This document shows, in pieces, positions 58,644-63,615 of a stretch of 64,000 bases of DNA. Positions within the stretch are counted from its first letter, which is position 1; each line of letters starts with the position of its first letter. The stretch is from the NCBI RefSeq assembly GCF_017348835.2, contig NZ_CP071375.1; one strand, given 5' to 3'. Source of the stretch: Escherichia coli (GTDB lineage Bacteria; Pseudomonadota; Gammaproteobacteria; Enterobacterales; Enterobacteriaceae). Under the pieces are notes generated by a model, which was not told where the DNA came from, did not search any database, and saw only the letters and a program-made list of their open reading frames with translations. A program made the position numbers and the translations under genes.

Positions 58644-59985
58644 TCAATCTTTTTTATCGGGATCAGGCTTCTTTTTAGGTAACTTCGGGGGCTTAACTTG
58701 CTGATGACTTTGCGTTCGGCGCGTAAGCCAGGGATGGTCAGCTTTAGGTTTAACATAGTATTTTGAGCGTAAATCAATACGGGCATTATCCACTCGTTCA
58801 TGGACACTCTTTTCATCATCCAGTGGTATAGGCTCCGGGCCATCAACATACTTTTCCCAGCCCAGCGCTTTCCCGTCATACAGAACGTTAATTTCACCGT
58901 CAAAGTTCTCGCATACAGTAACAACCGAATGCCTAAGTCGATATCCCCGGCCCTCACTGCGTACCTGAAACGCACTGCTTTTGTACTGGAAAGTGAGATT
59001 TTTAGACAGAACGCGCTTCGCCTGTAGGCTGAAGATATAACCCAGTTCCTCTTCAGAATGGTGCACATCAAGATGAGCATTATCAGTAGTACGAGGCGAC
59101 GTAGCGAACCGGTTGTTATAGGCTTCAATAAAGGTCGGCAACCATGCATTTGCTGTTTCAATATCACTGATATTCTGAAGCCGCATTTCTTTGACCAGCC
59201 TGTCCTGTAGTGTCTGATTGGCGCGCTCTACCCGCCCTTTTGCCTGCGGGCTGTTGGCATGGATTGGCTCGATGCCCAGTGTCTTTATCGCACGAGTGAA
59301 CTGGGTCAGCTCACCTTCCCGCTCTGGGTTATTTACCCTGAATATACTGTGTCTATCAGAGTAGAGAGCGAGCGGTACGCCATGATCATTAAGGTAACCC
59401 CGGAGGGTTTCCATGTAAGCCCGGGTTGTTTCAGCAGGCACAAAACGCAACGCCATCAACGCACTGGTGGCATCATCAATGAAAACGATCAGTGTACATC
59501 TGGGGCCTCGATTTTCAAACCAGTCATGAGGTGAGCCATCAATCTGGATCAGTTCACCGTAAGATGGTCGTCGCATGCGGCGTTGATATATACGGGCAAT
59601 TTTACGACGGCGTTCACGCCATACCCCCCTCTTCTATCATCCACTTTCTGAGAGTTTCAACGGATAAAGATAAACCGTGTATCTCGCGCAATTTTTCGCA
59701 CGCAAACGTAGGTCCAAAATCAGCGTAACGGCCTTTGAGGAGTGAAATTACTGTTGCTCTGAATTCAGTAGAAAAGGAATTATTAGGACGCTTTCCACGT
59801 CGGTGGGAAACCAGACCAGAAGGCCCTTCATTTCTATACCGTTGCACCAGACGTTTAACCTGCCGAATAGAAATGCCAATGCGTGCCGCAGCTTGTTCCT
59901 GAGTAATATGTCGATTAATTGACTCCTGAATAATCTGAAGTCGGTGGAGTTCCTTATGACTCATCGTAACAGTTTCTTTGGTCAT
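58644..59985 (-). pseudogene. HTH + DDE (integrase-core) transposase split into two frames (IS481/ISNCY-like)
   Basis: N-terminal HTH ORF 59614..59985 and DDE ORF 58644..59576 are in different frames; a C7 run sits at the junction (59625-59631). Confidence 0.6.
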
Positions 59986-60319
59986 GAAAAATCCCCCAGA
60001 GAATTGTCTGGGGACATTTTAGAATGGTTCAAAGGGGACATTACAGCTTGGTGTTAACAATAGCCTGCTTCTCCTTGCCTTTCGGCACGTAAGAGGCTAA
60101 CCTACATGTGTCTGGCATGAAATTGGCCTCAGATTAATGTTAAGCGTCTTGCAGGACGCGTAATGTTAACTGGGGCTTTTCTCTACCTGCCGTTGGTGTT
60201 CGTGCCCGAGGCAGATAGCCTCAAGCACCCGCAGTCATTCTACTTAACTAAGATTTCCCCGCAAACCGTTTTTGTCCAGCACAGTAAATATCCAACTAAA
60301 CCAATGGAGTTCGCTGTAT

Positions 60320-60499
60320 TTACCGCCAGTATTCAATGCACATGACCGCCATGAACACCCCTAAAAAAAGGGCATTTATATATCCAAATATTAATATCAA
60401 AACATCAACTTTTTCCATATACCTTGCTGTGAAGATGATGGGCATACATGATGCGAACAACCAGAACGCAACAAACAAAAACTGCAATGCGTTTTTCAT
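60320..60499 (-). CDS. Hypothetical small membrane protein (59 aa, two predicted TM helices)
   Basis: ATG at 60499 four nt after a perfect AGGAGG; MKNALQFLFVAFWLFASCMPIIFTARYMEKVDVLILIFGYINALFLGVFMAVMCIEYWR. Confidence 0.5.
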   Translation of the reverse strand: MKNALQFLFVAFWLFASCMPIIFTARYMEKVDVLILIFGYINALFLGVFMAVMCIEYWR

Positions 60500-61651
60500 T
60501 ATTCCTCCTACAATCAATGTGCAATTACATTTAAACACACCTCAATTTGGCCGGACATATAAATATCTAAACCAGAAAAAATCACTTACATAGCGTTACA
60601 AACTCTTTAGTCTAAAGGTTCATCGTAAAACATTCCCCATACTTATCAGTCCGTTCCGCGCCAGGTAGCTCATTGCCTTATCTGGCAACCTGTAATCAGG
60701 TTTCCGCTTTTTCAGTTGGCTGGTCGTTTAACCGACATAGTTAACCCATTAATCTAGTTGCCGGATGTTGGTGGATTTTCGCGTTTTAGTTGTTCATAAA
60801 AGTGCACAGCTTTAACCAATTCTTCTGATGTAACCGGGACTGGTGAGGCAGTGAATAAGGCCTGAATTTGATAGTTCGGCCTGTCGTTACAATCCTCTTT
60901 TTTCGGTACATATTTCCAGTCACCAGACCACTACTTCCCCTGAAAGTCCGTAACGCCTTTTTTCACGTAGCGATATCGCCATGTCACTGGTTTTGCTTGC
61001 CCCGCCGTTTCATGCCCTTCCTGATAATTAATCTCGCTCATTCATCGCCCCACTCATCACAATATGCTTCGACCGGAGTTTTTCCCGCTTCATAGTCATC
61101 ACGCTAGGATTCGACATCAGCAGCACTTCCACCGCGTAACTCACCATAGTCCATTAATAGTTCATCCCGCTCTTCAAAACTGATGTTATATTTAGCTGAA
61201 CAAAAATCAGCCACTTTGTTCTTCCTCATCGTCTTTTATTTCGTGGTATGAGTAATTGCAGTAGTTAAAGAAAATTTCTTATGCTCCGTCATGAATTTCA
61301 TCAGGTGTTGCGTCATCGTCCACTTCGAATACATCCTCAAAATCTCCACCAGCTATTCCCGTTTCAATAATAATTTTGAACTTTCGCATTTCACTACCGC
61401 CCTTTCGGGCGGCCTCCTGATGTTCTGAGGGTGCAGAAATCCATCCGGTTAAGGATTAAGTTTTATTTACAGAACTGAATTTAATTATTCAGATATACGT
61501 ATCTGTAACCTTACGAATCTACTCACTGGATGCCTCTTTCATAAAAATAATCCAGTGGGTTTTATCGTTTTTTCCCTGTTCGTTGACAGATAACAGGCTT
61601 TCTATCTGTCAGTGCCAGAATCTGGCTTACCGGTATTTGCGTTTCATTCCA

Positions 61652-62008
61652 TTAAAAAATCAGAACGCCGTGCGGCCTCAACACCCGAAAAGCTTCTTTA
61701 AATCTCTGTCGCAAATCATCACGCCAGGCATCTTTATTCAGCCGTCCATATTTCTTTCCCATCCAGGCGTTATCACCAACACGCTCAAGATGCGGAGGGT
61801 CTAATACAACCATCGAAAAAGATGCGTCTGCAAATGATAATGCACGAAAATCTGCGATAATGTCAGGGCTGATAATCAAGCGTCTCCCATTGCGTAATGT
61901 GTATCCTTCTTTTCTGATATCGCTAAATATCGCCCGTTCGTCAGACTTATCGAACCAGAACATGCGGCTGCCACAGCACATATCAAGAATGGTTGCCGGT
62001 GCACTCAC
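61652..62008 (-). pseudogene. DNA methyltransferase fragment (motif I, DPPH motif IV; C-terminus missing)
   Basis: 118-aa ORF from GTG: DMCCGSRMF, VVLDPPHL, RVLRPHGVLIF, then stops abruptly. Confidence 0.5.
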
Positions 62009-62535
62009 TGCGCCACGTCCTGAAAATTACCCTGATAGAAAGCCAGTATGCGCTGCATAACTTCGCTCTTCCGGCACTCGCGACAGATTATGTTTAGGCG
62101 ACTGTCGTAGCGACGTATTTCTCCGTCAGGTGATGACCAGATAAGGTCCGGATCAACCACAGCAGGTTTCTTCACCTTTGCCCTCGAGAGTTTTTTGCGG
62201 GCGTTTTGCCAGTCCTTACGCGCCTGTTCAGAGGGGAATAACCCGTATCTGATATCCCAAAAAATGAAACCGCACCGGAAGCTGAACCATCTGTAGAGCG
62301 TGAGGGGCCGTTCTATTTCCTCTTCGCAGATAAGGACGGAGAAAAATACGGTCGCGCAAACAAACTTTCTGGTCTGGATAAGGCACTGGCTGCTGGCGCC
62401 ACTGAAATCACAAAAGAAGAATATTTTGCCCGAAAAAATGGCACATACACGGGCTTACCGCAAAATGTAGATACCGCTGAAGATTCAGAACAACCAGAGC
62501 CGATAAAAGTTACCGCTGACGAAGTAAACAAAATT

Positions 62536-63615
62536 ATGCAGGCAGCCAATATCAGCCAGCCTGACGCCGATAAGTTGCTTGCTGCATCACGTGGTGAATT
62601 TGTTGAAGGGATTAGTGACCCGAATGATCCGAAATGGGTTAAGGGGATCCAGACCCGCGATTCTGTGAACCAGAACCAGCATGAATCGGAACGGAACTAC
62701 CAAAAAGCGGAACAAAACAGCCCAAATGCGTTACAAAACGAGCCAGAAACGAAACAGCCTGAATCAGTGGCGCAACAGGAAGTGGAAAAAGTCTGCACCG
62801 CCTGCGGTCAGACCGGCGGCGGCAACTGCCCTGATTGTGGCGCGGTGATGGGCGACGCAACATACCAAGAAACATTCGATGAAGAGTATCAGGTTGAAGT
62901 TCAGGAAGATGATCCGGAGGAAATGGAAGGCGCTGAACATCCACACAAGGAGAACGCTGGCGGCAATCAGCATCACGATAGCGATAATGAAACTGGCGAG
63001 ACGGCAGATCACTCAATTAAGGTGAACGGTCATCACGAAATCACATCCACCAGCAGGACGTGTGACCATCTAATGATCGACCTTGAAACCATGGGAAAAA
63101 ATCCTGATGCCCCGATCATCTCAATAGGTGCAATATTTTTCGATCCGCAAACCGGAGATATGGGACCGGAATTTAGTAAGACTATCGATCTGGAAACTGC
63201 TGGCGGAGTCATTGATCGGGACACCATTAAATGGTGGCTTAAGCAATCACGCGAAGCGCAATCGGCCATTATGACCGATGAAATCCCGTTAGATGATGCA
63301 CTGTTACAATTGCGGGAATTTATCGACGAAAACTCCGGTGAATTTTTTGTTCAGGTTTGGGGAAATGGAGCCAACTTCGACAACACGATTTTGCGCCGTT
63401 CATACGAACGGCAGGGGATCCCCTGCCCGTGGCGTTACTACAACGATCGCGATGTACGCACAATCGTTGAGCTGGGGAAAGCCATAGACTTCGATGCCAG
63501 AACGGCTATTCCATTCGAAGGTGAGCGCCATAATGCACTTGATGACGCCCGTTACCAGGCAAAATACGTTTCAGTTATCTGGCAAAAACTGATCCCGAGT
63601 CAGGCTGATTCTTAA
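62536..63615 (+). CDS. Prophage protein with zinc ribbon and C-terminal DEDD (DnaQ-like) 3'-5' exonuclease domain
   Basis: 359-aa [19 protein letters not shown] zinc ribbon; exonuclease motifs [25 protein letters not shown]. The frame is open upstream to 62242 without a start codon. Confidence 0.7.

Follow-up and report, generated by a model that had tools for sequence, protein, structure and literature searches.

What is a perfect hairpin with an all-G/C stem doing among the gene remnants of a decayed Escherichia coli prophage? The hairpin lies on the minus strand at positions 61397-61412 of a 64,000-nt stretch of contig NZ_CP071375.1 (assembly GCF_017348835.2), the whole of which is called the window below; a perfect 9-bp palindrome lies near it at 61584-61611. 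A sequence-only reading of the window had taken both motifs for operator or RNA-structure remnants of a lost immunity region. The account we favour, with modest confidence and by analogy with known systems, is a different one: the hairpin would be the 3' module of a portable leader of ~105 nt carried by lambda-like phages of E. coli, serving as a split ribosome-binding site and as a mosaic junction. The copy in the window would then be a relic, and the palindrome would have nothing to do with it.

The hairpin is present with a perfect 6-bp stem, as had been reported, although one base away from the position first given for it (61398-61413). Its description as a GNRA-loop hairpin applies to one strand: GAAA is found only on the minus strand, here the sense strand, whereas the plus strand reads TTTC. 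No other stem of six G/C pairs with a 4-nt loop occurs in the window, where first-order Markov simulations of the window predict 0.27 such structures, and a seventh pair (G.U, between 61413 and 61396) can be added. The predicted folding energy of the hairpin alone is -12.4 kcal/mol, and its 46-nt context reaches z = -3.6 relative to shuffled sequences. That the hairpin is not a typical terminator was a sound judgement. There is no T-run on either strand, the hairpin being followed by UAGUGAAAUG in the sense direction and by CCUCCUGAUG in the antisense direction, and a terminator scan lists no entry for it; the terminator reading is ruled out by the missing U-tract.

The hairpin is one component of an intergenic leader, hereafter the cassette, which in the window consists of the following parts:

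61390-61492, minus strand: the whole leader cassette, intergenic, ~105 nt including the start codon; covariance-model match of 133.6 bits, E = 2e-23
61475-61492, minus strand: the 5' end of the cassette, CTGAATAATTAAATTCAG, with stops in three frames (TGA, TAA, TAA) and a 6-bp A/T-rich hairpin
61427-61445, minus strand: a second small hairpin; the family form is GAGGG-N9-CCCUC, and GAUGG in the window leaves one mismatch
61413-61418, minus strand: Shine-Dalgarno (SD) sequence AGGAGG, abutting the 5' foot of the GNRA hairpin
61397-61412, minus strand: the GNRA hairpin, CCGCCC-GAAA-GGGCGG in sense; the window reads ACTA CCGCCC TTTC GGGCGG CCTCCTG
61390-61396, minus strand: unpaired 7-nt spacer UAGUGAA, between the hairpin and the AUG
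61387-61389, minus strand: AUG of the DUF7167 gene, directly after the spacer

Read in sense, CTGAATAATTAAATTCAG is followed by an AT-rich stretch, AAUCCUUAACC, the small hairpin (61445-61427), CAUC, AGGAGG, the GNRA hairpin, the spacer and the AUG. In ArgO145 the upstream coding sequence ends within the CTGAATAATTAAATTCAG motif. The small hairpin is weak evidence for a second structure, since its 3' arm was fixed by the pattern used in our searches. No consensus sigma-70 promoter was found in the AT-rich half of the cassette, where the best match agrees at 8-9 of 12 positions with a poor -35 element and the promoter scan has no entry; a weak promoter may nevertheless be present within the cassette. 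A leader peptide starting at AUU was considered and rejected, as its frames and stops are inconsistent across variants (by inspection).

The geometry of the 3' half carries the proposal. The distance between AGGAGG and AUG measures 23 nt in the window and 22-25 nt across the cassette family. Such a linear distance is too long for an SD sequence to work, but once the 16-nt hairpin is looped out, 6-9 unpaired nt remain (7 in the window), a normal spacing. At least six unrelated families start after the hairpin: DUF4014, DUF7167, Ead/Ea22-like proteins with DUF551, an open reading frame (ORF) of 43 amino acids (aa), an unnamed family beginning MQEIK, and the antiterminator Q. For nearly all copies before the first five of these, the distance from stem to AUG is 6, 7, 8 or 9 nt. 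DUF4014 genes provide a natural control: without the cassette they read AAGGAG-6 nt-ATG, and with it AGGAGG-hairpin-6 nt-ATG. A minimal form, stop-TGTC-AGGAGG-hairpin-spacer-ATG, accounts for 19 of 183 copies; as it retains only the SD and the hairpin together with a stop, spacer and ATG, these two elements appear to be the core unit.

Energy predictions are compatible with such an arrangement. The duplex of the SD with the 3' end of 16S rRNA is predicted at -10.3 kcal/mol, the cost of opening the SD at ~3.4 kcal/mol whether or not the upstream leader is included, and the cost of opening the AUG at ~1 kcal/mol. The spacers UAGUGAA, UAAUGAAAA and UAAGAA contain no SD of their own. An RNAalifold consensus fold had raised the possibility that the SD is sequestered by an upstream UCCU or by the anti-SD-like CCCUC; we set it aside as probably unimportant, since the opening energy of the SD does not change when the leader is removed and the minimal form has no leader. 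The UCCU and CCCUC columns behind that fold were themselves fixed by the search pattern.

From this geometry and from precedent we infer a translational role for the cassette. It would be transcribed on the minus strand within the pR-side early transcript, and its stop codons in three frames would end the translation of whichever gene lies upstream. The stable hairpin would then loop out the 16 nt between AGGAGG and AUG, reducing the linear distance to an effective 6-9 nt, and the SD would drive initiation at the AUG of the downstream gene. Present between many gene pairs, the same cassette could also supply the homology for recombination that shuffles accessory genes.

The substitutions within the hairpin were assessed in copies retrieved without constraining it. 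A search of viral contigs anchored on the upstream part only (AATCCTTAACCGG...CACYCTCA) returned at least 128 copies, 79 of them distinct among the matches listed; with a second search, anchored on AGGAG and the hairpin, the total in viral contigs exceeds 240 copies, which is a lower bound. In the 79 distinct copies, 96.8% of the 474 helix cells are paired. Twenty-nine changes are one-sided and kept as wobble pairs (27 U.G and 2 G.U), two are double (G-C to A-U and C-G to A-U), and 15 break the pair. The one-sided changes are distributed unevenly between the arms: C>T occurs in 27 cells over 5 columns of the 5' arm, G>A in 2 cells over 5 columns of the 3' arm. This bias is missing from the unconstrained columns on either side of the stem, where 35 cells in 11 columns carry G>A and 9 cells in 4 columns carry C>T. 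Variants with wobble pairs are predicted to fold at -7 to -10 kcal/mol on the sense strand, compared with -0.3 to -8 kcal/mol on the antisense strand, and GGAG is kept in 78 of the 79 copies. The substitution pattern lends moderate support to a hairpin that pairs as sense-strand RNA and is maintained by selection.

The cassette is common in E. coli. Of 5426 complete E. coli genomes, 2603 contain its 71-nt core; there are 4106 such sites, as many as six in one genome, and none of them is annotated. Among GTDB species representatives (one genome per species) the core matched only in Citrobacter braakii, which added no diversity for covariation; the family accordingly has a narrow range, with Escherichia at its centre. 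BLAST comparisons indicate that the segment 61389-61492 travels independently of both its neighbours in the window, a methyltransferase gene upstream and the DUF7167 gene downstream: some loci combine the methyltransferase and the cassette segment with another downstream gene, others have the cassette and DUF7167 without the methyltransferase. Altogether, 22 upstream contexts and more than ten downstream families occur in free combination, and this reassortment on both sides marks the cassette as a mosaic junction. In ArgO145, vB_EcoS-666R9, mEp460 and Rac-SA53 the cassette lies between genes and is oriented in sense; in the first three, 0-2 nt separate its end from the gene that follows, whereas Rac-SA53 has IS1 there instead.

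Some cassettes are split, with a gene in mid-cassette that uses the first GGAGG as its SD. This is seen in ArgO145 (L005; 1209-1320 and 1422-1528) and in two further loci (L168 and L172): the first half, ending in GGAGG, adjoins a small inserted gene, and the second half, AGGAGG and the hairpin, follows that gene and precedes DUF7167. The arrangement suggests that genes can be inserted within the cassette. A broader picture can be drawn, in which an undescribed portable gene-junction cassette stops upstream translation in all frames, restarts it through a hairpin-bridged split site and provides homology for swapping DUF7167, DUF4014, Ea22-like genes and even Q; the hairpin might in addition be recognized by one RNA-binding regulator, of phage or host origin, through which all cassette-linked genes are controlled together. 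We put it forward tentatively, as something rather doubtful when taken as a whole.

The precedent for a split site comes from phage T4, where the SD spacing is reduced from 22 nt to 5 in gene 38 and from 27 nt to 11 in gene 25, and the intervening hairpin, with experimental support, is required for efficient initiation (PMC3014915; PMC7297116; Gold 1988, Nivinskas et al. 1999 and Malys & Nivinskas 2009, reviewed in PMC3014915). The dimensions are alike: an SD 22-27 nt from the AUG, a hairpin of ~16-17 nt and 5-11 unpaired nt in T4, and 22-25, 16 and 6-9 nt, respectively, in the cassette. The cassette shows three features of such a site, namely a distant SD (more than ~15 nt), a stable gap-filling hairpin that leaves 5-11 nt and, with moderate support, maintenance of the hairpin. 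It differs from the T4 arrangement, which is tied to a single gene and passed on together with that gene, in serving at least six unrelated genes in temperate lambda-like phages and in adding upstream stop codons and further conserved leader sequence; its function is also presumptive.

For the cassette as a mosaic junction, the closest described analogue is the promoter-early stem-loop (PeSL) cassette of the T4-type phages RB49 and phi1, which comprises stops in an AT-rich region, a promoter, a stem-loop, and an SD with start codon, and mediates modular shuffling (Arbiol et al. 2010, PMC2839356). Both are intergenic cassettes repeated before variable accessory genes, with upstream stops in an AT-rich stretch, a G/C stem-loop, and the SD and start of the accessory gene, and both are shuffling points. 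PeSL, however, has a consensus sigma-70 early promoter and a terminator stem-loop, whereas the best promoter match in our cassette falls short of the consensus, and its stem-loop is without a U-tract and sits between SD and AUG.

The lambda boxB hairpin takes a GNRA-like fold. It resembles the cassette hairpin in being a short G/C stem with a GNRA-type loop in an early phage transcript, but boxB has a pentaloop and the cassette a tetraloop, and boxB occurs once per early operon near pL or pR, whereas the cassette has many copies per genome at gene junctions. No boxA-like element, as expected of a nut site, was seen when the leader was compared by eye with the consensus.

The surroundings of the window copy explain its present state. 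The window holds a Qin-like prophage. Over the segment 61000-62100, identity is 100% with the Qin-type prophage of E. coli IAI1, and 99.1% with phage PhiR42_1 (complete genome record). According to both annotations, all genes here lie on the minus strand of the window, in the distal part of the pR-side operon, with the order dicC (cro), ydaT, O-like gene, DUF977/LygF, S-adenosylmethionine (SAM)-dependent methyltransferase, DUF7167, further genes, rem/ydfU and Q. Four features of the window matter here:

62245-62247: junction of a 5.2-kb deletion, from comparison with the IAI1 annotation; the deletion also exists relative to phage PhiR42_1
61519-62008, minus strand: remnant of a class I SAM-dependent methyltransferase gene; its ORF 61652-62008 encodes 118 aa
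61584-61611: the perfect 9-bp inverted repeat TGACAGATA-N10-TATCTGTCA, in the 3' part of the methyltransferase reading frame
61207-61389, minus strand: remnant of the DUF7167 gene, with an in-frame stop after codon 36 (stop codon 61279-61281)

Compared with IAI1, the deletion eliminates the immunity and replication region: it takes out half of DUF977, the O-like gene, ydaT, dicC, dicA, ydfA-C, dicB, ydfD and the 5' part of an exonuclease gene. It joins the truncated DUF977 gene to the middle of this RecE-like exonuclease gene, and dicF is lost along with dicB. The hairpin and the palindrome lie 650-850 bases from the junction, in sequence collinear with undeleted relatives, and their neighbourhood is made up of the remains of DUF977, the methyltransferase and DUF7167. 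The description of this region as gene-poor does not hold: it is packed with pseudogenes and insertion sequence (IS) remnants, including the DUF977 gene cut by the deletion, the methyltransferase gene with its premature stop, DUF7167 with its internal stop, a frameshifted hypothetical gene and an IS remnant. Intact homologues of DUF7167 have 60 aa, and an intact copy matches Pfam PF23768 with E = 8e-15. Since the pR/dicC promoter region has been deleted and the DUF7167 gene is interrupted, the window cassette looks like a relic of a functional element that is unlikely to be active; the mismatch in its second small hairpin is a further sign of decay.

The palindrome has a different history. It was correctly located by the sequence-only reading, and the TTGACA hexamer that overlaps it is present (61583-61588), but its interpretation as an operator fails. 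The repeat lies inside coding sequence, on the methyltransferase codons L-T-D-R-K-P-V-I-(G/C)-Q (the window reads C at the ninth codon), and its half-site occurs in the window only as its own two arms. The DicA/DicC operators of the undeleted prophage, which read TTGTTAGTCATAACTAACAA and are situated between dicA and dicC, are likewise inverted repeats in the same type of prophage, but they have no half-site in common with the palindrome, which in undeleted relatives is found within a gene ~2.5 kb away. Nor does its position downstream of the O and DUF977 genes correspond to that of a lambda-like repressor/Cro operator, which is placed between divergent repressor genes beside the early promoters. 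A sigma-70 promoter at TTGACA finds no usable -10 hexamer at 16-18 nt (the 17-nt spacing gives CTGTCA) and no entry in the promoter scan.

The repeat is also poorly conserved. In the intact methyltransferase gene the arms read TGACCGACA and TATCGGTCA, which are complementary at 8 of 9 positions, and in close relatives of the window they read TGACAGACA and TATCTGTCA, again with 8 of 9. One-sided copies (TGACAGACA with TATCGGTCA) are common among methyltransferase loci, full 9/9 complementarity is confined to the window's own lineage (5 of the 298 loci fetched), and homologues with 82-90% protein identity have no repeat at the site. The double change from C:G to A:T had seemed compensatory and thus indicative of a selected hairpin in the methyltransferase mRNA; this candidate was dropped in view of the common one-sided intermediates and the missing repeat in diverged homologues. 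Perfect 9-bp inverted repeats with spacers of 0-20 nt number 34 nested matches (~20 distinct) in the window against ~7 expected, so that a single one is unremarkable. The gene itself has departed from its intact homologues of 157 aa by a change of AAA (lysine) to TAA at 61652-61654, a 1-G insertion near 61574-61576 and the loss of its stop codon; in RefSeq it is annotated as a pseudogene for IAI1 and as a protein of 118 aa for ETEC1739. Given the location in methyltransferase codons, the lack of conservation and the dissimilarity to the Qin operators, we conclude that the palindrome is a chance by-product of codon choice and drift in a dead, truncated gene, with no regulatory meaning. Absence of conservation in related prophages, which the earlier reading had named among its grounds for abandoning both motifs, is what we observe for the palindrome but not for the hairpin.

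Two other repeats occur close by. An 11-nt inverted repeat at 61521-61560 (ACTCACTGGAT / ATCCAGTGGGT, 91% complementary, 18 nt between the arms and no U-run after it) spans the stop codon in intact methyltransferase genes and is kept between the window and the locus of a 157-aa homologue. A small palindrome, CAGATA-TACG-TATCTG at 61490-61505, lies directly upstream (in sense) of the cassette and is present only with cassettes that follow the methyltransferase; it has CAGATA/TATCTG in common with the 9-bp palindrome, probably by coincidence.

Several observations weigh against a split ribosome-binding site. Sequence variation is low in this young, Escherichia-centred family, true double compensation affects only 2 of the 474 helix cells, and these cells come from related sequences and are not independent events; that all 100 nt are so well conserved might be due to recent spread and not to selection. 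Copies upstream of antiterminator Q hold another GGAG, of the conventional kind, between the hairpin and the AUG and 11 nt from the latter, and a few cassettes have no nearby start codon at all, so the hairpin can persist without serving an AUG. The 3' arm GGGCGG, once melted, could moreover form a weak duplex with the anti-SD (-6.7 kcal/mol) and would be suitably spaced for it, in which case the hairpin would be inhibitory and not helpful. The rival explanation that follows from this last point is that the hairpin masks the weak SD-like arm or throttles initiation, with AGGAGG as a mere standby site and the accessory genes kept at low expression. The GGGCGG pairing would leave 6-9 nt before the AUG, AGGAGG can lend its last G to the stem for the seventh pair, and hairpins near ribosome-binding sites are generally viewed as negative (cited in PMC7297116). 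Inhibition nevertheless seems unlikely to us: a perfect AGGAGG is kept exactly at the stem foot with the near-invariant GGAG noted above, predictions show SD and AUG alike as accessible, and DUF4014 genes without the cassette have a strong SD with an identical unpaired spacing of 6 nt, which argues that the strong SD of the cassette is the functional one. Comparably improbable is that the cassette mainly acts as a linker for recombination, or is a selfish intergenic repeat that has spread recently, and that its hairpin has no RNA function of its own. The free reassortment of flanking genes, the split forms, the very high sequence identity, the narrow distribution with C. braakii as the only matching GTDB species representative, and the analogy with PeSL (PMC2839356) all speak for it; the strand-asymmetric, wobble-preserving substitutions of the stem, unseen in its flanks, and the fixed distance from stem to AUG across unrelated genes do not. 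A linker role is in any case compatible with the split-site explanation and forms part of it.

A hairpin recognized by an RNA-binding protein, for example as a boxB-like target of an arginine-rich antiterminator peptide, or one that acts in mRNA processing or stability downstream of an RNase E-prone AU-rich stretch, would agree with the G/C stem, the GAAA loop and the AU-rich 5' half of the cassette. We rate this as quite improbable, given the tetraloop in place of a pentaloop and the lack of a visible boxA-like element. A genome can moreover have up to six copies, which are found in both early operons and at a distance from pL/pR, a distribution that does not resemble that of nut sites. Least credible, and in our view very improbable, is the original proposal of operator or RNA-structure remnants from the immunity region. 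It was right in that the hairpin is a structure at the RNA level and that the immunity region has been deleted nearby, and a perfect palindrome overlapping TTGACA could be counted in its favour. Neither motif, however, derives from that region. Each is situated in sequence that is collinear with undeleted relatives and comes after the replication genes in the direction of transcription, which refutes the proposed location, and the palindrome is a coding sequence feature, 8/9 in close relatives and missing in diverged homologues, with one-sided intermediates, without resemblance to the DicA/DicC operators and without a -10 hexamer after TTGACA.

Searches of RNA families and of the literature bear on novelty. 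Rfam returned nothing at 61200-61700 even at E <= 10, and in the wider interval 60000-62600 its sole significant match is sok at 60059-60230, overlapped by two chance-level small nucleolar RNA matches. A full-text search for the hairpin and leader sequences in the paper collection consulted gave no match, and among publications on split ribosome-binding sites and Ea22 intergenic stem-loops only the T4 and PeSL papers were relevant; papers on prophage small RNAs (anti-sRNAs and Pas sRNAs) concern the PR'/late region and not the cassette. Few genes are known to have a split ribosome-binding site (among them T4 genes 38 and 25, thrS and rpmE), and to these the hairpin would add, on the strength of the T4 analogy, a further and previously unannotated example placed in a portable junction cassette. 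If this is correct, the cassette is a naturally portable split ribosome-binding site present in about half of the sequenced E. coli genomes, with Shiga toxin (Stx)-converting phages among its carriers. It would explain why many small prophage accessory genes seem to have no ribosome-binding site at a normal distance, and would affect start-codon calling and expression prediction. The cassette also gives a concrete sequence with which mosaic exchange can be tested in lambda-like phages, in parallel to PeSL in T4-type phages. The window locus itself is a decaying, promoterless part of a Qin-like prophage and exemplifies ordinary decay.

The sok match mentioned above (antitoxin RNA, Rfam RF01794; minus strand, 99.8 bits, E = 9e-23) is unannotated at this place in the IAI1 record. 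No intact Hok-like ORF adjoins it, and it abuts an IS remnant; it may represent a truncated second hok/sok locus, the annotated hokD being ~3.5 kb away. On the minus strand at 58644-59985, two ORFs of an ISNCY / IS1202-like (ISEsa1 family) transposase, an incomplete pseudogene in IAI1, break the prophage between ydfW and the sok-like remnant. Among the database records, PP818812.1 ('Actinobacillus phage vB_Apl-pPE4') holds the present E. coli lambda-like segment with 92-94% identity, and its host attribution looks doubtful.

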